This document shows positions 12,042 to 62,791 of a DNA stretch of 64,000 nucleotides, piece after piece (position 1 is the first letter of the stretch; every line of letters starts with the position of its first letter). The notes below the pieces were generated by a model. The model was not told the DNA's origin. It was given only the letters and a program-made list of their open reading frames with translations, and did not search any database. The position numbers were made by a program, and so were the translations under genes. The DNA comes from Escherichia coli (lineage in GTDB: Bacteria; Pseudomonadota; Gammaproteobacteria; Enterobacterales; Enterobacteriaceae), in NCBI RefSeq assembly GCF_009931435.1, contig NZ_CP043414.1; one strand, 5' to 3'.

Positions 12042-12670
12042 GCAGATAATTTACTCTCTACGTAATCAACCTGATTTGCCGAATCCCGCTCATCGGCGAT
12101 GATACCCCCCGTAATGCGTGGTCCTTATTTCCGATAAGTTTACTTGAGTCTTTAGCTTCCCATTTCAGCCCACTCTCCCCTGTGTGGGCTTTTTTCATTT
12201 GTCTGCTTCAGTGAGTAGCTGGCAATGCTCCATCCACTCTGCAAGGATGATAATAAGAGGATCTGATTCAGAAGAGTTTTGAAAAATTGGACCGCCATCG
12301 AGGCCTCGAACCCCGTACCATACAACAATCCTGGTTGTCGTCTGCTCTTCCTGATGAGCTAATGGCGGTTTGTGATATGAGCCTTACAGCATATTGTCTG
12401 TCAGGCTTGAGTGCGATGCGTAAGATACAGAAAAGACCCCACACAAACATGATGGAATTATGATTTTTTTCATATGAATGTCAACCAACACATTCATAAA
12501 ACACTCGCACAAGTTCACTTTTTAAGCAACATGACGCCGATCACAACAAAATATCGGCGAAAAAGGAGGGTAAATGCCATTTGACGTAGAGATAAGCAGA
12601 TGAAATGATTACCCGCTTTGCGATTCACTCTCTGATGGAATAAGAAATTGGAGATGGAAAAGTTTCTAAA

Positions 12671-13486
12671 CTAAAGAGTGTAGCGTATTTTAACGTGCTT
12701 ATTTACAGGATAATATTTGTCACCTAATTCCTGCACTCTATTAGATACCCATTGATTTAATCGTGCATCATCTCTGTATGTTTTTACGTTCAGAACGGAG
12801 AGCAATAACATCACTAGCGATTCAGGAAAAACAGGGTAAATATTTTTTAAGTGCAATAATAATTCATACGCAAGCGCCTGCTTAATAGGTGCGTCTGCGT
12901 CCGGAATGCGCGACATTTCGCGAAGCCATTTTTCTACATGCTCACATTCTTTCCCTTCACGGAAAAGTCTCAACAAAGGCATATGGTGCTCAAGAAGAAT
13001 GCATTTGCAATCTGTTCGTACTGAATCGATAAACTGCACTAATTTCTTAAGTCCGGTGAAGCGTCCGGCATGGATATTCTCTTTAATATCAAGAAACACG
13101 TCATCCTGATCATATACCCAAACGGTCCCTTTTTGATTTTCAAGTATCCGAAAAACAAACTTAATCGGGTAATCAGGGTAATCCACCCAGTCATAAACTC
13201 CAGGGAAATCATTAAACTGCACATTTATGGTAAGCGCATTGTCGGCTGCCCACTCGCAATCTCGTACGGCAGCCATGAGATAAATGAGTTTATCATCATC
13301 GACTAAATCATCACGACAATCATAAGGATAATCATAGTATTGTTTAATCAAAACCTTGAATATATCGACACAAGAAACCAGTGTACTTCTGATATCTTCA
13401 GGTAACTGATTGTTTTTAAACGTATTGTGTACGCTTTGTTTCGTATATAGCAACAAATTATTGTGCGGCGCTTTTAATGGTATCAT
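12671..13486 (-). CDS. yahL: Hypothetical protein, AT-rich orphan (YahL-like)
   Basis: 271-aa ORF in a markedly AT-rich block; no recognisable catalytic motifs; synteny with K-12 yahL. Confidence 0.6.
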   Translation of the reverse strand: MIPLKAPHNNLLLYTKQSVHNTFKNNQLPEDIRSTLVSCVDIFKVLIKQYYDYPYDCRDDLVDDDKLIYLMAAVRDCEWAADNALTINVQFNDFPGVYDWVDYPDYPIKFVFRILENQKGTVWVYDQDDVFLDIKENIHAGRFTGLKKLVQFIDSVRTDCKCILLEHHMPLLRLFREGKECEHVEKWLREMSRIPDADAPIKQALAYELLLHLKNIYPVFPESLVMLLLSVLNVKTYRDDARLNQWVSNRVQELGDKYYPVNKHVKIRYTL

Positions 13487-13728
13487 TGCGATCTCTCTTA
13501 AATAAAAATAAACGTCGCAGATAATAAAGCCCTGATTAAACCAGGCACTATCAGAAATCGCTCATAACTAATATATGCAGCATTGTGTACTGGAGGGAAT
13601 TAATTTAACAATTTGAATTTACATTATAGATTTTACTGCTACTTTGATAGTATTTCGCCCTTCTTAACTAAAAAGTTAAGTGGAGGGCGAAATTAATATG
13701 TTAAATCATAGAGCATTTATTAATTTTT

Positions 13729-14778
13729 TCAGTCTGTTAGTGTGCGATTATCGATAACAAAACGATATTTCACATCACCACGTAGCATTCGCTCATAGGC
13801 TTCATTAATTTGATCGGCCCGAATCATCTCTATATCAGCCACGATGCCATGTTCGGCGCAAAAATCGAGCATCTCCTGAGTTTCTGGAATGCCGCCAATC
13901 ATAGAACCGGCTATCGCACGGCGTTTCATGATCAGGTTGAAAACTTCCGGCGATTTATGCGGTGTCGCAGGCGCACCAACCAGGGTCATGGTGCCATCGC
14001 GCTTCAGCAAGGTGGTAAAATCATCGAGATTATGTGGCGCAGCTACGGTATTCAAAATGAAATCGAAACTCTTCACATGAGCCGCCATCTCATCGGCATT
14101 GCGCGAGTTAACAACTTCATCGGCCCCAAGGGCTTTTGCCGCTTCGCGTTTTGACTCAGACGTGGTAAATGCCACTACATGCGCCCCCATCGCGTGGGCC
14201 AGCTTTATCCCCATATGCCCCAGACCGCCAATGCCAACCACGCCCACTTTTTTACCCGGCCCGGCCTGCCAGTGACGCAGCGGCGAGTACGTGGTGATCC
14301 CTGCACACAATAAAGGCGCCACCGCCGCCAGTTGCGCTTGCGGGTGACGAATACGCAGAACATATCGCTCGTGAACGACAATCTGTTGTGAGTAGCCGCC
14401 CAGCGTATGGCCCGGTTCGTCCGGCGTCGGCGAGTTATAGGTGCCGGTCATGTGATCACAGTAGTTTTCCAGCCCGTCTTCACACTCTTCGCAATGTTTA
14501 CAACTGTCGACAATGCAGCCGACACCGACCAGATCGCCCGGCGCATATTTTTCTACCTGATCACCAACGGCTACCACGCGCCCTACAATTTCATGGCCCG
14601 GCACGCAGGGATAAACCGTCCCCGCCCACTCGGAACGGACCTGGTGGATATCGGAATGGCAGACGCCACAGTAAGCGATTTCAATTTTGACATCATGCGG
14701 TCCCGGTTCACGCCGGGTGATATCCATCGGTTCCAGCGGTTGTTTAGCGGAATATGCACCAACAGCTTTGATCTTCAT
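13729..14778 (-). CDS. yahK: Zn-dependent NADPH aldehyde reductase / alcohol dehydrogenase
   Basis: 349-aa ORF with Zn-ADH signature GHEIVG and catalytic-Zn cysteines (CGVCHSD). Confidence 0.85.
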   Translation of the reverse strand: MKIKAVGAYSAKQPLEPMDITRREPGPHDVKIEIAYCGVCHSDIHQVRSEWAGTVYPCVPGHEIVGRVVAVGDQVEKYAPGDLVGVGCIVDSCKHCEECEDGLENYCDHMTGTYNSPTPDEPGHTLGGYSQQIVVHERYVLRIRHPQAQLAAVAPLLCAGITTYSPLRHWQAGPGKKVGVVGIGGLGHMGIKLAHAMGAHVVAFTTSESKREAAKALGADEVVNSRNADEMAAHVKSFDFILNTVAAPHNLDDFTTLLKRDGTMTLVGAPATPHKSPEVFNLIMKRRAIAGSMIGGIPETQEMLDFCAEHGIVADIEMIRADQINEAYERMLRGDVKYRFVIDNRTLTD

Positions 14779-14864: not shown

Positions 14865-15851
14865 TTAAACCACCCGATCCAGCCCCAACATGCCGCGAGC
14901 CTGAATGAAACAGAGCAGCAACGTTCCCCATAAGGCCATCGTCAGGTAGGGGCTTATCCCGAGAATATTGAAGCCGCTTTCAATAATTTGCAGAAGAAAC
15001 AGCGCCAGCACCATACCAATTATCCGCCCGCTGCCGCCGTCCGGATTAACCCCGCCGAGTACTGCCGCGAGGATTGACACCAGCAAGTACGATTCGCCAT
15101 AAGAGGCCTTAGCCGAGTTGAGTTTCGACATCATCAAAAATGCCGCTACCGCACAAAGCAAGGCGGAAATGACATACACCCATATCAGCACCCGACGCGT
15201 GTTAATACCGGAGTAAAGTGTTGCTCGTTCGTTAGAACCAATCAGATAAATGGATTTACCGAGCGGCGTTTTCTCCAGCAATATCCACAGCCCCAGCGCC
15301 ACTGCGGTAAACAACCACATCGGTAGCGGAATACCGAACCACTGTGCATGATTCAACCACAGCACCCATGAGGGATAATTGGCAATGGCGCTACCGCCTG
15401 TCACCAGAATATTTACCCCTTTGAGCAACGTCATCATCCCAAGCGTTGCAAGAATTGGCGACACTCGAATACCGGCAATCAATACGCCATTACATAAACC
15501 AATTATCACCGCCGCACCAGCGCCCGCCAGCAGCGTAGCGACAACCGTAGTAATACCCGGCGGATACTGAGTCGCCACCCACGCCATCACCAGTGAACAG
15601 GCGTTAGCGGTAGCAATAATTGACAAGTTAATGCCGCCACAAAGCATGGTCACCGCCATAGCCAACGCCAGAATGCCCAGCACGGGCATTTGCGAAGCGA
15701 CAGACTGGAAGTTACTTATCGACCAGAAAATCTCCGGCATAGTAATGCTGAACGCGGCAACAGTTAGCACCAGCAGGCCGATCAAATAAAACTCAACGTT
15801 ATTACGCCACGATTTTTTCATAGCAGACTCCGGTTCTGATGCTGACTCCAC
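14865..15851 (-). CDS. ABC transporter permease (RbsC/LsrD-like)
   Basis: 328-aa polytopic membrane protein; overlaps the upstream permease gene; part of a 4-gene ABC operon. Confidence 0.8.
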   Translation of the reverse strand: MESASEPESAMKKSWRNNVEFYLIGLLVLTVAAFSITMPEIFWSISNFQSVASQMPVLGILALAMAVTMLCGGINLSIIATANACSLVMAWVATQYPPGITTVVATLLAGAGAAVIIGLCNGVLIAGIRVSPILATLGMMTLLKGVNILVTGGSAIANYPSWVLWLNHAQWFGIPLPMWLFTAVALGLWILLEKTPLGKSIYLIGSNERATLYSGINTRRVLIWVYVISALLCAVAAFLMMSKLNSAKASYGESYLLVSILAAVLGGVNPDGGSGRIIGMVLALFLLQIIESGFNILGISPYLTMALWGTLLLCFIQARGMLGLDRVV

Positions 15852-16789
15852 GCCGTGGCACTAATGCTGGCAACGATGATGATGCCTGTGATCAATGTTT
15901 GCCAGTAAGACGAGACTCCCAATAAATTTAGCCCGTTTTGCATCACTGCCAACAACACCACGCCGAGCAAAGTACCGGTTAACGTGCCGCGCCCGCCGAG
16001 CAAACTAGTGCCGCCAAGCACCACCGCAGCCAGTACTGTCAGCTCATAACCCAGAAGAGAATCGGGGGCGACAGTCATCACCGTCCACGACTGCACTACA
16101 CCCGCAGCACCAGACATCAATCCCATATAGCCGTAAACGAAAAGTTGCAGTTTCAGCACGCTAAAGCCGATGCGACTGGCTGATTCACGGTTCCCGCCAA
16201 GGGCATAAATTTTGCGCCCTACACTGGTGAAATTCATGATAAACGCTGTCAGCAGCACCACCGTAATCATGGCGATCAGCGGCAGACCAAGGCCATAGTC
16301 ATAGCCGTCAACATCGGTGTACTTGAACAACATTACCCCCTGCTCAAACCACGGCGGAAAGTCGTACAGCCACACACCTTTACTCAACCATAACAGCAGG
16401 CCATAGAAAATATTCAGCGTCGAAATGGTGATGATGATAGAAGGCACCCGTAGGCGATTAACCAGTAAGGCGTTTATTAAGCCAAGTAAAATGCCGATGC
16501 CGCCCGCCAGGGCAAACGCGACAGCAAAGTTGCCACCCATTTTTTGTAGCAACAGCACCATGCCGTATTGCGCAATGATGGTCATTGCTGGAAACGAAAT
16601 ATCAATTCCACCGGAAATTAACACCACAAACAAACCACAGGCGAGAATAGTCAACATGGCATAGTTATTGGCGAGATCGTACAAATTACCGAATGTCAGA
16701 AACTCGTCGCTGCGCCAGGCAAGGCCAACAAACAGCACTATAATCAGTAATGCCAGCCAGAATTCATGACGTTTTTTCAGTTCAGCCAT
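15818..16789 (-). CDS. ABC transporter permease (RbsC/LsrC-like)
   Basis: 323-aa polytopic membrane protein; overlaps the ATPase gene by 8 nt. Confidence 0.8.
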   Translation of the reverse strand: MAELKKRHEFWLALLIIVLFVGLAWRSDEFLTFGNLYDLANNYAMLTILACGLFVVLISGGIDISFPAMTIIAQYGMVLLLQKMGGNFAVAFALAGGIGILLGLINALLVNRLRVPSIIITISTLNIFYGLLLWLSKGVWLYDFPPWFEQGVMLFKYTDVDGYDYGLGLPLIAMITVVLLTAFIMNFTSVGRKIYALGGNRESASRIGFSVLKLQLFVYGYMGLMSGAAGVVQSWTVMTVAPDSLLGYELTVLAAVVLGGTSLLGGRGTLTGTLLGVVLLAVMQNGLNLLGVSSYWQTLITGIIIVASISATAWSQHQNRSLL

Positions 16790-18281
16790 TTACCACCTCC
16801 GCAATCCTGGCCTGAGAACTGCTGTCAGGCAGGAAGCTATGGGTGATCTGACCTTTTTGCATTACCAAAATCCGGTGGCTTTGATACCACGCTTCTTCAA
16901 TTTCATCGCAGATCATCAATACCGCAATGCCATGAGCCGCCAGATCGCTGATAATGCCGTATATTCCTGCTTTGTTGGCGATATCAACACCGACAGTCGG
17001 GCTATCGAGAATCAACAGTCGTGGCCCAATCGCCAGCCATTTGGCGATCGATACTCGCTGCGCGTTACCCCCGGAAAGCGTATTCACCGGGAGATGTGGG
17101 TCAGAGACTTTGATGGTCAATGCCTTAATTAGCCTGTCCACCAGGTCACGCACTTTAGCTTCACTCAGAAAGCCGAAGCGATCTTTTACCTTGTGAAAAA
17201 CAGTGCTAATGATGTTGTCTTCAATAGATTGCGCCATCACCAAACCGCGCGACATGCGATCTTCCGAAACATAACCAATACCGTGGCGGATGGCGTCCTG
17301 GTTACTATGCAGTGTAACCGGCTGACCGTTGATGAGGATCTCACCAGCATCCGGTCGGGTCATACCAAACAGACTCAGACATAATTCCGTGCGCCCCGCA
17401 CCAAGCAGGCCAACAATCGACACCACTTCGCCCGCTTCCACCCGCAAGTTAATATTTTGATATTCCCCATGACGACTTAAATTACGCACCTCCAGCACTG
17501 GGGTGCTGGATTTTCCCTGCCACAACTCTCGCACCTGATATTCAAACTCCTGGCCGGTCATCAGGAAACCGAGTTGTTTTGTGGTCATCTCTGCAGCCGG
17601 AAAGGTCCCGACCAGCTCACCATCTTTCAACACTGAAATACGGTCGGAAACTTCCATCACCTCTTCCAGACGATGACTGACGAAGACCACGCAGATCCCG
17701 CGTTCCCGCAATTGATGCACCACCTGTAATAACCCTTGCACTTCCTGATGGGTCAGCGAAGCGGTTGGTTCATCCATCACGATCAACCGTGCGTCCTGCG
17801 CCAGTGCACGGCAAATTGCCACCAGCTGACAGCGGGCAATTGAAAGCTCAGAAACGAGCGTATCCAGTGGCAATGTGACGTTAATACTGGTCATTGCCGC
17901 CTGCGCCACCTCACGCAGACGACGTCGGTTAACAAACAGTCCGTGGTGATAGTGATTCACGGCGATATTCTCCCAGACACTCAGGTTAGGAAATAAAGAG
18001 AGGTCCTGATAAATCACCTGAATCCCCTGCGCCACCGAAGCGGCGGGTGTCAGCTTTGACCAGTTTTTCCCACCAAGCGTAATTTCCGCCCCCTCATCCG
18101 GGCGATAAACACCGGACATAATTTTAATCAACGTCGATTTACCACAGCCGTTTTGCCCGGCAAGGCAGTGCACCTCACCCGACATAAAGTCGAGAGAAAC
18201 ATCGCGCAGCGCTCGCGTGGCATGAAACGTTTTGTTGATATGACGAAGGGAAAGGAAGGTTTCCATAGCATCCCCTGGCAA
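16782..18281 (-). CDS. ABC transporter ATP-binding protein, fused double cassette (RbsA/LsrA-like)
   Basis: 499 aa with two Walker A motifs (GQNGCGKST and GLLGAGRTE) and Walker B LIVMDEPTASL. Confidence 0.88.
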   Translation of the reverse strand: MPGDAMETFLSLRHINKTFHATRALRDVSLDFMSGEVHCLAGQNGCGKSTLIKIMSGVYRPDEGAEITLGGKNWSKLTPAASVAQGIQVIYQDLSLFPNLSVWENIAVNHYHHGLFVNRRRLREVAQAAMTSINVTLPLDTLVSELSIARCQLVAICRALAQDARLIVMDEPTASLTHQEVQGLLQVVHQLRERGICVVFVSHRLEEVMEVSDRISVLKDGELVGTFPAAEMTTKQLGFLMTGQEFEYQVRELWQGKSSTPVLEVRNLSRHGEYQNINLRVEAGEVVSIVGLLGAGRTELCLSLFGMTRPDAGEILINGQPVTLHSNQDAIRHGIGYVSEDRMSRGLVMAQSIEDNIISTVFHKVKDRFGFLSEAKVRDLVDRLIKALTIKVSDPHLPVNTLSGGNAQRVSIAKWLAIGPRLLILDSPTVGVDIANKAGIYGIISDLAAHGIAVLMICDEIEEAWYQSHRILVMQKGQITHSFLPDSSSQARIAEVVNG

Positions 18282-18314
18282 TAAGAATCGGGGCTTTCGC
18301 CCCGAAGAAATGGA

Positions 18315-19301
18315 TTAATAAAGTGAGTCAATATTGTCTTTGTTGACCAGTAATACCTTATGGAAACGGATAATTCGCTTATCCATATCTACGTCGGCCT
18401 TACCGAGATTCTCCATTTCTAATCCAGGTTTGATCTCTTCACCCTTCAGCAACGTGCTGGCGACGGCCGCGAGTGCGTAACCTGCAGAGGCCGGATCGTA
18501 AGTAATCCCTTCGGTGATATCACCACTTTTAATCAGTGATGCCGCCTGTGAAGGGATCATCATGCCATAGACTGCGACTTTATTTTTCGCCCGTTTCTCT
18601 TTCACTGCACGTCCCGCGCCAATCGGACCGTTTGAACCAAAGGAGACAACCGCTTTCAAGTCAGGATAGGTTTTCATGAGGTCCAGTGTGGTACGACGTG
18701 AGTCATCCACACTCTCGGCAACCGGCATGCGGCGGGTAACTTCATGCATATCCGGGTAATGCTCTTTCTGGTATTTCACCAGCAAGTCAGCCCATAAGTT
18801 ATGCTGCGGCACGGTCAAACTACCCACGTAAATCACATAGCCGCCCTTGCCACCCATGCGTTTCGCCATATGTTCAACATATTCAGCGGCAAATTTTTCG
18901 TTATCAATGATTTCGATATCCCAGTTAGCACTTGGCTGACCGGGGGATTCGTTGGTCAGAACCACAATTCCGGCATCTCGCGCTTTTTTGAATACCGGTT
19001 CCAGCACGTTGGCATCGTTTGGCACGATAGTAATTGCGTTAACCTTACGAGCGATTAAATCCTCAATAATTTTAACCTGTTGAGGAGCATCAGTACTTGA
19101 AGGTCCCACCTGTGACGCATTAACACCAAAGGCTTTACCTGCCTCGACCACACCTTCGCCCATGCGATTAAACCACGGCATACCATCGACTTTAGAGATA
19201 TTCACCACGACTTTTTCCGCTGCCTGGAGCGGCGAGGAAATTAGCGCAGCGCCTAATAACAGCGAAGACACCATATTGATAACAAAACGTTTATTCATCA
19301 T
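18315..19301 (-). CDS. Periplasmic substrate-binding protein of the ribose/AI-2 (LsrB-like) class
   Basis: 328 aa with signal peptide MMNKRFVINMVSSLLLGAALISSPLQA; the C-terminal ...VLLVNKDNIDSLY resembles the LsrB C-terminus as recalled. Confidence 0.8.
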   Translation of the reverse strand: MMNKRFVINMVSSLLLGAALISSPLQAAEKVVVNISKVDGMPWFNRMGEGVVEAGKAFGVNASQVGPSSTDAPQQVKIIEDLIARKVNAITIVPNDANVLEPVFKKARDAGIVVLTNESPGQPSANWDIEIIDNEKFAAEYVEHMAKRMGGKGGYVIYVGSLTVPQHNLWADLLVKYQKEHYPDMHEVTRRMPVAESVDDSRRTTLDLMKTYPDLKAVVSFGSNGPIGAGRAVKEKRAKNKVAVYGMMIPSQAASLIKSGDITEGITYDPASAGYALAAVASTLLKGEEIKPGLEMENLGKADVDMDKRIIRFHKVLLVNKDNIDSLY

Positions 19302-19551
19302 TTCAGCCTCATTGCAGGGTAGTCAGGAAGTGTTCGCCCAAATTAGCGCGCTGGAGAGAATAAGAATTTTCGAATATTTTTATGCAGAATAAACAGCCCT
19401 ATTTCAGGCAGCTATTAAAAATTTGGTTATAAATATGGACAAAATGGGCAGCAACAATAAGTGTGACATTCATCACGTAAAAAATAGTAAAACAAACACA
19501 ATTAACGATATTTTATGTTTGTGAGTTTATTTCATGCGGATAGAGAGTTAT

Positions 19552-19962
19552 CTACACAACTTCAATGAGGGCATATTCTTCAAAAATAACGTCCATTTCG
19601 GGTGAATAGCTTCCCTCTGCCTGGAAAAAACGACGGTGTTCATTGCGCCAATATTCAAGACTAAGATCACCTTCACCTTCCTTGCGGGCAATCTCTTCGG
19701 TGACATCAGAAAAGCGCAGTAAATGCAGGCCAATCACTCTGATAACACATACAGGCTCACCACGGCTATTTTCTACAATCTTATACTCGCCAATCATCGG
19801 AAATGCGTTGTCTTCAATACATCCTGCCAGCGAACCACAGGAAGCAGTTTTAACACCAGTTGCAATCAACGTTGCGAGGTAATCGGCCAACGCTGCTGAA
19901 TCGCCAAAACTACAAAAGGAAGCATGGGGATATTTTTGTGAGATTTTTTCTTTTATGGTCAT
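19552..19962 (-). CDS. Small cytoplasmic protein, possibly ASCH-domain
   Basis: 136 aa when started at MTIKEK (11th codon of the 146-aa ORF); family assignment is from pattern recall only. Confidence 0.5.
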   Translation of the reverse strand: MTIKEKISQKYPHASFCSFGDSAALADYLATLIATGVKTASCGSLAGCIEDNAFPMIGEYKIVENSRGEPVCVIRVIGLHLLRFSDVTEEIARKEGEGDLSLEYWRNEHRRFFQAEGSYSPEMDVIFEEYALIEVV

Positions 19963-33600: not shown

Positions 33601-34616
33601 TTTTGGGTGATCCCTAAAGCCCCGTTTTTCTCAATTTTGACTTTACCGCTAAAGGCGGAGTTATCCCCGGTTAAGTAAGTTGTACCATTGAGCGCATTGA
33701 TATAGCCCAGGCCCTCGCTGCCACTGACAATATCCGCGGAAATAGTCGCGTTTTTATCCGTGTGGTTTAAAGTGATTTTCTTATCTGATGTCGAAGCCCA
33801 CACAAACTCAATTTTTTCGGCATCAATAATCCCTGCCGCTTTCGCATCACTCCCTTCCTGGGCACCTAACGCCAACTCAGAGTTGGTGCTTAAACTAATA
33901 GTCGGCGCAGAAACTTTACCGCCTTCTGAAACGGCAAGTGTTGTATCGGAGTTTTGGTTATAATAGCCCAGGCTAATTTGCTTACTGGCATTAACTTCAC
34001 CGCCGTTATTAACTGACAGGTACTGATTACCACCGTAACTGCTGTAAACGCCCATAAAGAAGGTTTCAGAATTTACCTGGCTGCCTTCACCACTGACATT
34101 TCCCTGCAAATAGGTCAGACGACTGGTGCCCTTAACATGGATTTTGCCGCCATTGGAGACGTTAAAATAGCCGCGATCATGCCAGGAGCCGGAGTTTGAG
34201 TCATATAAATCATCTGCATACAACTCACTACCAGCATTGGAGACGTTCAGGAAACCTGTACCTTTCAGCAGGACGTCAAGCTGACCATTGATATACACTT
34301 TCCCTCCGGTGATATCCAATCCACCACCAGAATTGAGCGTAAAGCGTGGACGCGAGGTGTCTGTTACGTTAATAACCAGATTAGCATTATCAGTCACCGT
34401 AATACGGTAATCGATGTTCTGATCGGTTTTGCCGTAATCAACAGTCTTATCCTGGTTCACGATGAAATCACCAGAGAACGCCAGAGATGAATATAAACTT
34501 ATCGCGCTAATTAAAACAGCCCGGGACTTTTTTCCTTTTACTCTGCTCCCCAGCTCCGAGCAGACGCTCCAACAGTTACGGGACCTGTTCCACTTTAGCC
34601 GATATATTTTATTCAT
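30633..34616 (-). CDS. ehaA: AIDA-I-type (type Va) autotransporter adhesin, 1327 aa (EhaA-like)
   Basis: Extended signal peptide MNKIYRLKWNRSRNCWSVCSELGSRVKGKK...; long Gly/Asn/Thr-rich beta-helix passenger; Pro-rich linker PEPDPMPNPEPNPNPEPNPNPTPTPGP; C-terminal beta-barrel ending in aromatic ...GIKWQF. Symbol is from recall of EHEC EhaA size and locus. Confidence 0.8.
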   Translation of the reverse strand: MNKIYRLKWNRSRNCWSVCSELGSRVKGKKSRAVLISAISLYSSLAFSGDFIVNQDKTVDYGKTDQNIDYRITVTDNANLVINVTDTSRPRFTLNSGGGLDITGGKVYINGQLDVLLKGTGFLNVSNAGSELYADDLYDSNSGSWHDRGYFNVSNGGKIHVKGTSRLTYLQGNVSGEGSQVNSETFFMGVYSSYGGNQYLSVNNGGEVNASKQISLGYYNQNSDTTLAVSEGGKVSAPTISLSTNSELALGAQEGSDAKAAGIIDAEKIEFVWASTSDKKITLNHTDKNATISADIVSGSEGLGYINALNGTTYLTGDNSAFSGKVKIEKNGALGITQNIGTAEITNRGKLHLKADDSMTFANKISGNGTISIDSGTVELTGNNYAFSGYIDVASDAVAVISEDKNIGRAELDVDGKLQINANKDWVFDNDLEGKGIVEINMGNHEFSFDEFAYTDWFQGSLAFQNTTFNLEKNAEFLQKGGITAGQGSQITVGKGAHSISTLGFSGGTVDFGALAAGAQMTEGTVNVSKTLDLRGEGVIQVTDSDVVRSVSRDIDSALSLTEVDDGNSTIKLVDAQGAEVLGDAGNLQLQNKNGQILSSRSQRDIQQNGQKAAVGTYDYRLTSGVNNDGLYIGYGLTQLDLQATDSDALVLSANGKSENAADLSAKVTGSGDLAFSSQKGQTVSLSNKDNDYTGVTDLRSGTLLLNNDNVLGNTHELRLAAETELDMNGHSQTVGTLKASADSLLNLNGGTLTVANGGTSSGSLSGDGELNIQGGTLDIAGDNSNLTANVNIASSANVLVSHAQGMGNANIENNGTLALNNSAEKRAAAPVNYTLGGNLTNNGTLMTGMSGQQAGNVLVVKGNYHGNNGQLVMNTVLNGDDSVTDKLVVEGDTSGTTAVTVNNAGGTGAKTLNGIELIHVDGKSEGEFVQAGRIVAGAYDYTLARGQGANSGNWYLTSGSDSPELQPEPDPMPNPEPNPNPEPNPNPTPTPGPDLNVDNDLRPEAGSYIANLAAANTMFNTRLHERLGNTYYTDMVTGEQKQTTMWMRHEGGHNKWRDGSGQLKTQSNRYVLQLGGDIAQWSQNGSDRWHVGVMAGYGNSDSKTISSRTGYRAKASVNGYSTGLYATWYADDESRNGAYLDSWAQYSWFDNTVKGDDLQSESYKSKGFTASLEAGYKHKLAEFNGSQGTRNEWYVQPQAQVTWMGVKADNHRESNGTLVHSNGDGNVQTRLGVKTWLKSHHKMDEGKSREFQPFVEVNWLHNSKDFSTSMDGVSVTQDGARNIAEIKTGVEGQLNANLNVWGNVGVQVADRGYNDTSAMVGIKWQF

Positions 34617-55684: not shown

Positions 55685-56275
<591 letters not shown>

Positions 56276-56467
56276 GCGATTATGCATCTACCTATTTACG
56301 TCGGTCACTCAGTCAGAGTCTTGCCCATATTCAATGAGGTTCAACACCGCAGCCAATGAAAAGTAGGCCATGCGGGGATTAATAGCATTACTCATTAATC
56401 AATCGCTCTTTTCATTTACGTGCTCTTTATGTAACATATTGCTTTTATTGATCTTCCTGGAGTTTGC

Positions 56468-56824
56468 ATGAATAAGAATCTCATCCTCGCATTTGCATTA
56501 TTTTCCTTACCTGTATTTGCAGAAGAAGATCTGGGGCCAGGCAAATATGTTTGTGACATTAGGATTTCCAGCCTGGATACCGCTACTCAAATTCTGTCAA
56601 AATCCGCAACAGTTCTCGATAATGGAAACAATTTCATCGTTCAAATGCCAAATGGAGATCAATTGTACTCTCCAGATCTGGAAAATGTTGATGATGGTAT
56701 AAAACAAAAAGCAACAATAGGTGGAGTGACATTTATTCGTCGTCCAACTTTTAACGATCGCTTCATCGTGGAAGATGGAAATACAGGATTCTTCTATAAG
56801 ATGCGAAACTGCGAGAAGAAATAA
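56468..56824 (+). CDS. Small secreted protein of unknown function
   Basis: 118 aa with signal peptide MNKNLILAFALFSLPVFA and two Cys residues; AT-rich. Confidence 0.5.
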   Translation: MNKNLILAFALFSLPVFAEEDLGPGKYVCDIRISSLDTATQILSKSATVLDNGNNFIVQMPNGDQLYSPDLENVDDGIKQKATIGGVTFIRRPTFNDRFIVEDGNTGFFYKMRNCEKK

Positions 56825-57112
56825 AGGAAGTTTGATAGCGATATCCTCCTGATTTTCAGGCTTTGTACCTGTTCAAGACTTACAACTACAAGCCGCTACG
56901 TGTTAACGCCTCCCAAAATAACCACCGTTAACCGTAGCGGTCATAGATACTATTATTTTAGCCACATTACTGGTGATAATGATAATTGATATTATGGCCG
57001 TATAGAAAATAAGCATTAATTATCAGAAAGTTTATTATGTAAACGCGTCCTAATGATTACGTTATTCCTCTTACCGATATTCGCCCAGAGCAACCATCAA
57101 TTACACATATCA

Positions 57113-61005: not shown

Positions 61006-61337
61006 TAACGGCAATAAACTGTTCACTTCAGTGATATTTAAAATATGCATCCTCTCCCTTTTTTTTAAGTGATTATTATATCCGTGGGAGAGGAATACAC
61101 GCTATCAGGTAATCAATCAAACTGCGATAAATCATCGGCCAGTAAAGTGGAGATAGCCTCCATTCTCGAAAAATTCATACTCTCAGCGAAACCATCATCA
61201 ATCACTCATCCAGGCGTTTATGGGAGCGTCGCCAATGGCTGCTAACAATGCCAGACTTCCCCGTTGCCGAAATTCCACATACCACAAATGGTCACAGGGA
61301 TTGGGTGTTGAAATGATCCGGATGAGCATGTATCTTT

Positions 61338-61360
61338 ACGGTTATGTTATAACATAACAG
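61338..61360 (+). promoter_or_regulatory. Zur box upstream of rpmE2
   Basis: Palindrome GTTATGTTATAACATAAC immediately upstream of the rpmE2 ribosome-binding site. Confidence 0.6.
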
Positions 61361-61369
61361 GTAAAAATG

Positions 61370-61633
61370 ATGAAACCCAATATCCATCCTGAGTATCGTA
61401 CTGTGGTGTTCCACGACACCAGCGTTGATGAGTACTTTAAAATCGGCTCGACTATCAAAACAGACCGTGAGATTGAGCTGGATGGCGTAACGTATCCGTA
61501 CGTAACAATTGATGTCTCTTCGAAATCGCACCCGTTCTATACAGGGAAGCTGAGAACAGTGGCATCAGAAGGAAATGTTGCACGGTTCACCCAACGTTTT
61601 GGTCGTTTTGTTAGCACGAAAAAGGGGGCGTGA
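61370..61633 (+). CDS. rpmE2: Ribosomal protein L31 paralogue, type B (zinc-independent; YkgM)
   Basis: 87 aa [18 protein letters not shown]... lacking the CxxC zinc ribbon. Confidence 0.9.
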
Positions 61634-61773
61634 TGAAAGTCCTTAACTCTCTGCGTACCGCAAAAGAACGCCATCCAGACTGTCAGATTGTGAAGCGAAA
61701 AGGACGGCTGTATGTGATTTGTAAATCTAATCCACGTTTTAAGGCCGTTCAGGGGCGTAAGAAAAAGCGTTGA
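61633..61773 (+). CDS. rpmJ2: Ribosomal protein L36 paralogue (YkgO)
   Basis: 46-aa [49 protein letters not shown]; its ATG overlaps the rpmE2 stop (TGATG). Absent from the supplied ORF track because it is under 60 aa. Confidence 0.85.
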
Positions 61774-62791
61774 TTCATAATTCGCCGGATTAACGATATT
61801 TGTCTGATTAATAATCAGACCGGATTAATGTTGGTGTATTGATTACACCAACATTAATTTTCCTGGAAATATATTCTTTAAGTTCATTTAAAGCCAACTG
61901 CCTGACGTTTCTCTCCGAATATTCCATTATATTAATGTTGATTTGTTGACCAACTTCGCCCCTGTATGCTGGTATCAACTCTCTTTTAGACTGAACAAGC
62001 CACTCCGCCCCCTCCCTTTGCGGAGCAGCCTGCATTTACACTCAAACTGTTAAGATGATAAATGTGGTAAATCTGTTGGTACTAACATAAAAACGTTTAC
62101 GCCACAGGAACAGCCTGATCCACCGGTAACCCCATCGCCGACGTTCGAGTGCCAGTTAGAGTAACGCGCACAGATGACTGCACGCAGTGCCCTGTCAAAG
62201 AGGCCATCGTTCCTGTGACAGCTGGCAGCCTTCGTTTAACTTCACTTAATTTGGCTCTTGGGGGGGCTTACCGAACAGATGACGTAGTCACACCTATTCA
62301 ATTTTTCACCACTTATTGGAGTAAACACCCATAACCATTTTGTGCGGCATGTTAATCCATTAAAACACCTTATTTATTGTCAAATCTTCTTTAATGATGG
62401 TCAATAATAGTTTTATGTTCTATTTATTATCATTAAAACTTGTTTTTTTACTAGTCGAGCACAAAACGCATTAAGACTATTCCTAACACCTCAGGGCAAA
62501 GTTCCTGGCTAATATAAAATGCAAGTAAGAATTGAACGTTATATTGCCAATAACCTTATGAAACTGAATGTCTTTTTCTTCTTATCAAAAAAGCAATATT
62601 TTCATTTTTAGTAAATATTGACTTAACCATGGAATTCCTTTTCTGTTCACATATTGACACTCATCAGGAAAAAAACATAAATTTAAGCCCAATCGAAAAT
62701 AATTAAAACTTAATCTCGTTTAACCTATATTGATATGTGCTACGTATCTTATTTACTTCCGATTTACTAACAACACTGAATGTACTTGTAA

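Follow-up and report, generated by a model that had tools for sequence, protein, structure and literature searches.

yahL is a genuine gene in an AT-rich cassette

We analyzed a 64,000-nt stretch of Escherichia coli DNA (contig NZ_CP043414.1, hereafter the window), in which a sequence-only reading had singled out an AT-rich block at positions 12451–13700 containing the orphan-like gene yahL. The finding is correct but ordinary: yahL is a known, fast-evolving, AT-rich, almost unexpressed and dispensable gene found only in Escherichia. On balance, we favor the view that it is an accessory gene of ancient and probably xenogeneic origin that is silenced and can be dispensed with. The block is a cassette of ∼1.1 kb, made up of a single gene together with its 5′ and 3′ regions, that lies between a putative yahK terminator and the xtpA promoter:

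12671–13486, minus strand: yahL coding sequence, from the list of open reading frames (ORFs); 271 amino acids (aa), 32 kDa, isoelectric point (pI) 5.9
13487–13728, minus strand: yahK–yahL intergenic region, i.e. the yahL 5′ region; 91% identical to K-12, gapless
12485–12670, minus strand: yahL 3′ region up to the xtpA promoter; 81% identical to K-12, with 47 gapped columns

The 5′ region carries a ribosome-binding site (AAGAGAG) just before the ATG as well as a small hairpin with a U-tract (13531–13545), and a terminator-like hairpin at 13653–13692 can be read as the yahK terminator. The 3′ region is the most variable portion of the block, and the xtpA promoter marks the low-coordinate end of the cassette.

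Judged by its sequence, the 271-aa ORF is the ortholog of E. coli K-12 YahL (b0326, NP_414860.1, 'uncharacterized protein YahL'), a gene already catalogued. The K-12 protein likewise has 271 aa, is encoded at the same locus between yahK and xtpA/yahM/yahN, and shares 87% identity with the ORF product over 271/271 residues (E = 9e-161). The gene order yahK-yahL-xtpA-yahM-yahN is common to the window, MG1655, ER1821R and the 77%-identical lineage L010. The ORF product was 100% identical to protein cluster P0001, and over the 1.8 kb tested, NZ_AP027764.1 (E. coli strain 2017-02-2CC) matched at 99.7%, with the annotation at identical coordinates and yahL listed as 'hypothetical protein' (WP_001353421.1). 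Relative to K-12, the window yahL represents a divergent lineage (90.3% nucleotide identity); only ∼22 of the 5426 complete E. coli genomes match the window at ≥95%. On the low-coordinate side, yahN had been taken for the direct flank of the block. This place is actually occupied by xtpA with its promoter (12268–12484) and by yahM (12058–12298), which is frameshifted beside the window yahL, unlike at the K-12 locus.

The sharp drop in G+C content (GC) relative to the flanks was borne out by windowed GC and codon-usage calculations. GC was 37.0% (0.370) at 12451–13700 compared with a window mean of 49.4% (0.494), and 0.9% of all 1250-bp segments in the window were as GC-poor. yahL had the lowest GC among the 42 large ORFs of the window (0.384; K-12 yahL is likewise AT-rich with 0.388) and ranked 7th of 42 in codon-usage distance. 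Its GC at third codon positions (GC3) was the third lowest of the 42 ORFs (0.371, z = −1.7), whereas the flanks ranged from 0.47 to 0.59 (yahK 0.546, yahN 0.474). In 300-bp steps, GC remained at 0.32–0.41 from ∼12350 to 13850 and climbed to 0.52–0.61 inside yahK. Low GC at 12451–13700 was thus confirmed, but as a boundary the upper limit was too tight, with the low-GC stretch entering the yahK 3′ end by ∼100 bp. The notion of a compositional island needs a similar qualification: the AT-rich block is real, but other stretches of the window are equally AT-rich.

These other stretches, with GC of 0.35–0.39, comprise 61271–62621 (0.35), 33721–34411 and 55961–57071. They are located upstream of ecpR/ecpA, where ehaA meets betT, and around a LysR regulator and a hypothetical gene. 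Other AT-rich stretches of the window may be silenced regions, too.

The protein is rich in Asp (9.6%), Tyr (5.9%) and Lys (7.4%), as described earlier, yet Leu is its commonest residue (12.5%). It has no signal peptide or transmembrane segment (maximum 19-residue hydropathy 1.68). Three pairwise comparisons between the window, K-12 and L010 copies yielded ratios of nonsynonymous to synonymous substitution rates (dN/dS) of 0.17–0.20, with neutrality rejected at P = 6e-10 to 8e-17, and the 271-codon frame was intact at 77–87% identity. yahL is therefore a real protein-coding gene, under purifying but relaxed selection. Because the dN/dS of its neighbors is 0.02–0.05, YahL evolves ∼8 times faster at the protein level.

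YahL is an Escherichia-only protein with a single distant relative

Our homology searches together spanned ∼15 billion proteins. Only Escherichia proteins were returned, both by a word-indexed search of 5.8 billion clusters (by sequence and by profile) and when 1.84 billion representatives were searched exhaustively with HMMER. Scanning Pfam, NCBIfam, PHROGs and PADLOC with YahL and with its distant relative P0024 (see below) gave no score above noise; NCBIfam was also scanned with K-12 YahL and P0004, and YahL matched no PHROGs or PADLOC family at E ≤ 1. Likewise, nothing above noise was found in PDB sequences with the YahL-family profile or with P0024 alone. By these searches, yahL is confined to Escherichia and belongs to no described protein family, in agreement with its use as an E. 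coli/Shigella-specific marker (PMC11057252). The gene had been called orphan-like, with no assignable motif and no known function. All three points stand, given its Escherichia-only phylogenetic distribution, the lack of a Pfam, NCBIfam, PHROG, PADLOC or PDB-sequence match, and a function still not assigned after structure prediction and fold search.

Several candidate relatives were considered and rejected. Pfam DUF2931 (PF11153) fell short of its gathering threshold of 22.2 bits, scoring 12 (E = 0.17) over 41 residues. Comparisons with DUF2686 (YjfZ/YjiC) and YdjO, which are E. coli-restricted orphans of ∼270 aa, gave BLASTP E values ≥0.04 over short segments only, and aligning the YahL profile to YdjO with hhalign was not significant either (E = 0.3 over 23 columns). 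YahL residues 188–212 and YdjO residues 193–215 do show a local, co-linear similarity (..M..IPD....K..L.YE.L..), again without significance. P0009 proved to be a chimeric fragment, and P0010 came from an error-ridden E. coli assembly. We also rejected a plasmid or phage origin: tblastn of phage records gave no YahL match, and tblastn of a plasmid collection returned only E. coli-labelled records at 87–89% identity. The latter were multi-megabase records and plasmids of roughly 69–242 kb, which we take to be of the F-prime type, carrying a chromosomal yahL segment.

The only detectable distant member of the family is P0024 (WP_160470546.1, hypothetical protein, 275 aa), which is 24% identical to YahL over its full length (259 aligned positions; E = 1e-11 in the library by exhaustive search, 7e-19 pairwise). 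The two proteins share the invariant motifs YPD.P.KF, EN..G...VY, CK.ILL...PL and W....IP. P0024 has low GC too (0.30–0.38); its product is basic (pI 8.1), whereas YahL is acidic. It also lies at a different locus, in an island flanked by insertion sequences (ISs) beside type III translocator genes. We found it in four assemblies that are otherwise ordinary E. coli (98.9% identity in iadA-yjiG-yjiH), in each of which it opens an AT-rich island located within yjiH:

L005, 9300–20828 (also in L019, L020 and L021): yjiH-inserted AT-rich island with P0024

Downstream of P0024 follow IS fragments and genes for an inverse autotransporter adhesin resembling Air/EaeX, for a TPR_3 chaperone and for a translocator with an SseC domain. 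The island is an eip-like type III translocator locus that is not located at selC. At the DNA level, P0024 was present in 0 of the 5426 complete genomes. It is not EilA, a 565-aa protein annotated as a HilA-family regulator that occupies a different position in the canonical eip locus, and neither a Pfam match nor a DNA-binding domain was detected that would make it a DNA-binding regulator.

yahL is inherited vertically and lost repeatedly

Of the 5426 complete genomes, 4075 (75%) carried yahL, while the surrounding region was present in 5177; 25% of the genomes thus have no yahL. As many as 1073 shared one identical, ORF-precise deletion junction:

12658–13492, minus strand: segment equivalent to the 835-bp ORF-precise deletion (SF-166 alignment, junction-spanning query)

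The deletion starts 6 nt before the ATG and ends 13 nt past the stop codon (also seen at L003 3633–3773), so that the AT-rich 5′ region and the ribosome-binding site are kept. A junction-spanning query was contiguous in the 1073 genomes and split exactly at 71/72 in those with yahL. This looks like one ancestral event that was clonally inherited.

A scan with the invariant core of xtpA, covering a single genome of each species, returned four loci. In Escherichia sp. E1V33 (L016 132–2340), the whole ∼1.1-kb cassette was absent: a hairpin just after the yahK stop codon, which can again be read as the yahK terminator, is followed by ∼60 nt of unrelated sequence and then by the xtpA promoter. In E. 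albertii (L013 135–2874), yahN-xtpA abuts yahJ directly, and both yahK and yahL are missing. A local tree based on yahK and yahN distances groups the window, K-12 and SF-166, then L010 and E1V33, then E. albertii. Within this tree, L010 has yahL and its sister E1V33 does not. The synonymous divergence (dS) between L010 and E. coli was 0.64–0.67 for yahL and 0.62–0.66 for yahK. Vertical inheritance of yahL thus goes back to before the separation of E. coli from at least one cryptic-clade lineage. On the simplest interpretation, the gene was present in the common ancestor of the compared clades and was then lost at least three times. Its distribution is accordingly both restricted and patchy, covering Escherichia only and 75% of E. 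coli, with absences in E. albertii and E1V33, and its repeated loss indicates that it is dispensable.

Origin of the low GC and possible silencing

Little YahL appears to be made. The protein has been reported at <1 part per million (ppm), i.e. ∼6 copies per cell (PMC5053530). The supplement to bioRxiv 2025.03.20.643886 lists yahL as co-expressed with a 'cell adhesion'-enriched module. Furthermore, genomic SELEX (systematic evolution of ligands by exponential enrichment) found RNA polymerase with sigma-32, -28 or -24 to bind inside the yahL ORF (PMC5493296), and a CRP site at yahL was predicted by SELEX (PMC3105977).

The GC of yahL is below that of both the host genome and the flanking genes, as is the case for H-NS-silenced acquired genes. 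With the H-NS-silenced xenogeneic genes of enterobacteria, yahL also shares a narrow distribution, near-zero expression, variability between strains and co-expression with cryptic adhesion genes. Unlike this class, it is a single-gene cassette that has no integrase, tRNA-adjacent att site or repeats, and it is ancient and vertically inherited as opposed to recently acquired. We also searched for TCGATAAATT, the motif of H-NS high-affinity sites, and observed two one-mismatch matches inside the yahL ORF:

13026–13035, plus strand: one-mismatch match to the motif
13359–13368, minus strand: second one-mismatch match to the motif

At ≤1 mismatch, 10 matches were present in the 64 kb, two of them within the 816-bp yahL ORF; total motif counts in the window were as expected by chance.

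In the scenario we favor, yahL would have been acquired long ago from an AT-rich mobile gene pool, and the same pool would have supplied P0024, now in the adhesin/type III translocator island. H-NS-type silencers would coat the AT-rich DNA of yahL, with the protein almost never being made in the laboratory. YahL would act only once silencing is lifted, as a niche-specific accessory factor, and the co-expression module and the neighborhood of the paralog might place it in the surface/host-interaction repertoire. An AT-rich paralog lying in a mobile island shifts the odds, though not decisively, away from a native origin and toward an old import whose AT-richness is kept up, for instance through silencing. 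Any transfer must have been ancient, since yahL has co-diverged with yahK since the cryptic-clade split.

A number of observations weigh against this scenario. At the cassette borders, we found no convincing terminal repeats, target-site duplications, integrase or att site, only short chance repeats. The GC of yahL is similar in three lineages (0.384, 0.388 and 0.369) and has not drifted toward the host value over a dS of ∼0.65. With L010 as the outgroup, 38 substitutions were GC→AT and 24 were AT→GC, so GC is not moving to the host value. Our literature search retrieved no H-NS chromatin immunoprecipitation (ChIP) or hns-mutant result on the yahL locus. In addition, transposon insertions in yahL are reported to affect fitness (PMC5053530), an effect that is hard to square with complete silence and dispensability. 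Finally, the link to adhesion and secretion genes stems from one island in one lineage, and the 28 kb examined of the canonical eip locus contained no YahL-like sequence. As EilA is also distinct from P0024, the secretion-gene link counts as a single evolutionary event.

Low GC is hence a stable property of yahL and, because the gene has stayed at 37–39% GC through a dS of ∼0.65 with no drift, weak evidence of recent transfer when taken alone. The earlier suggestion of horizontal acquisition therefore survives in part. It is favored by the Escherichia-only distribution and by the mobile, AT-rich island that houses the sole distant relative, but there are no mobility genes, att sites or repeats, dS is concordant with that of yahK, and GC is stable. 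The tRNA-like xtpA was considered as an integration site for yahL and rejected, given that the two share a strand, with yahL upstream, and that no half-site is duplicated. Together, a foreign origin and H-NS silencing of yahL are plausible but unproven.

The alternative that fares best, though we consider it distinctly less probable, is that yahL is native, having arisen or diverged beyond recognition within Escherichia, and that the gene, barely expressed and weakly constrained, has drifted to an AT-biased mutational equilibrium. This would fit the missing mobility scars, a dS equal to that of yahK and thus vertical descent, and the lack of homologs beyond Escherichia. Also consistent are a GC steady at 0.37–0.39 in three lineages, the GC→AT excess with its implied equilibrium GC of 0.27, and a dN ∼8 times that of the neighboring genes. 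If it were true, composition would be uninformative on horizontal transfer. However, the full-length, 24%-identical relative in a separate, IS-flanked island of other strains indicates that the family is older and more mobile than birth in situ would allow. Moreover, the family folds, in its model, into a defined two-domain structure (predicted template modeling score (pTM) 0.71), and the weakly expressed neighbor yahN keeps a GC of 0.50.

Predicted structure and a possible link to type III secretion

The structure model of YahL itself was poor (predicted local distance difference test (pLDDT) 51.7), whereas the same five-sequence alignment gave a usable model of P0024 (pLDDT 71, pTM 0.71), in which 26 disordered N-terminal residues precede helices, a sheet of five strands and, at the C-terminus, a bundle of six helices. 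Members of the YahL family are thus predicted to consist of a disordered, polar and acid-free N-terminal tail of ∼26 residues, an alpha+beta domain and a C-terminal helical bundle. The first 25–30 residues of all family members are acid-free (P ∼ 0.01 for YahL), and the N-terminal 25 are rich in S/T/N/Q. Such a composition is compatible with a type III secretion signal, although not specific for one. The family has two invariant Cys and no invariant His, and we therefore see no Cys-His catalytic signature. Searching the family models with Foldseek gave a best E value of 0.096. The HECT-like type III effectors SopA and NleL (PDB 2qyu, 3sqv) reached marginal fold scores with a high root-mean-square deviation; YahL resembles neither at the sequence level, does not reach half their size and lacks a recognizable beta-helix. 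We regard this predicted resemblance as a lead, not as evidence of relationship.

It is conceivable, albeit improbable, that YahL-family proteins are substrates or accessory factors of type III secretion of the ETT2/eip type (ETT2, type III secretion system 2 of E. coli), with the disordered N-terminus serving as the secretion signal. P0024 has as neighbors an Air-like adhesin, a chaperone of class II and a translocator of the SseC type, the N-terminus is acid-free and S/T/N/Q-rich, residues 1–26 are predicted to be disordered in both models, and the effectors of ETT2 are essentially unknown (PMC11068852). Against this, Foldseek returned nothing convincing, and in sequence YahL resembles no effector of solved structure. 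yahL itself is flanked by yahK and xtpA/yahM/yahN, not by secretion genes, so that only P0024 is linked to secretion. This context is a single evolutionary event, and the examined part of the canonical eip locus has no YahL-like counterpart. Furthermore, the two models were built from homologous sequences, and their fold hits are not independent. We accordingly think it unlikely that YahL and P0024 represent a novel protein family that serves the cryptic ETT2/eip system of E. coli as substrates or accessory factors. EspE3, a reported ETT2-secreted protein, is SlrP/IpaH-like with leucine-rich repeats and is not YahL.

Least probable is that the ORF is incidental and the block acts at the DNA level, as a spacer that is AT-rich, binds silencers and insulates the strong xtpA promoter from yahK: such a role would fit the fitness effects of insertions despite <1 ppm of protein (the transposon phenotypes would then reflect disturbed silencing, not protein loss), the binding of RNA polymerase holoenzymes within the ORF in vitro and the AT-rich 5′ region retained where the ORF is deleted, but a dN/dS of 0.17–0.20 (P ≤ 6e-10) reveals selection on the encoded amino acids, frame and length are kept at 77% identity, and a 24%-identical homolog exists at full length.

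Neighboring genes

On its low-coordinate side, the cassette is followed by xtpA and yahM:

12268–12450, minus strand: xtpA, leaderless mRNA and 60-aa ORF (b4845 in MG1655)
12457–12484, minus strand: sigma-70 promoter of xtpA (TTGACA-16-CATAAT, 11/12 consensus), conserved in all Escherichia lineages compared
12288–12368, minus strand: tRNA-like element in xtpA detected by ARAGORN, a cloverleaf with an encoded CCA end
12058–12298, minus strand: frameshifted yahM remnant (annotation of the closest genome, alignments)

xtpA has already been published: RegulonDB v12 (PMC10767902) cites Muto et al. 2022 for a leaderless mRNA that carries a tRNA-like sequence. In line with this, the spacing of the promoter places the transcription start at the ATG of the 60-aa ORF. 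The cloverleaf has a minimum free energy of −30.8 kcal/mol (z = −2.9) and was unmatched in an Rfam scan. Comparing the window with L010, L013, L016, L012 and L003, we found the 81-nt cloverleaf to be 100% invariant in these six lineages including E. albertii, whose flanking genes are 14–17% different. In two lineages, by contrast, the fourth codon of the XtpA ORF is a stop codon: E. albertii reads ATG TTT ACA TAG, and L010 reads ATG TTT GCG TAG. With an invariant cloverleaf but an interrupted ORF, it appears to be the RNA, and not the XtpA peptide, that is constrained. The literature searched contained no report of this combination.

The only Rfam match near yahM was a weak one to a terminator-like hairpin (12147–12197, plus strand), which, lying inside yahM, could be read as the yahN terminator. 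yahM is frameshifted again in L010; nevertheless, long stretches of its DNA are identical across lineages. Conservation here looks as though it acts on nucleotides, either of the yahN 3′ end or of the xtpA 3′ part, and not on the YahM protein.

On the other side, beyond yahK, the window harbors an ABC-transporter operon that is absent from K-12. This four-gene operon of the sugar/AI-2 (autoinducer-2) type, at 14865–19962 in the yahK–yahJ interval, is also present in SF-166 and L010. The same interval contains an ASCH-domain gene, where K-12 has only a 75-bp remnant pseudogene. The yahN–yahJ interval is a hotspot of gene gain and loss.

Implications

yahL has already been catalogued as part of the E. 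coli 'y-ome', and genes that are AT-rich, silent and restricted to one lineage form a well-known class. The gene has been proposed as a universal quantitative PCR (qPCR) marker for E. coli and Shigella (PMC11057252). The deletion and absence data contradict such universal conservation: with 25% of the genomes without yahL and 1073 of them sharing one deletion, qPCR assays that target yahL will miss a large clonal group. Were YahL indeed a type III substrate, this would explain its silence in the laboratory alongside purifying selection. In any case, the location of P0024 beside type III translocator genes provides the first testable functional hypothesis for yahL.

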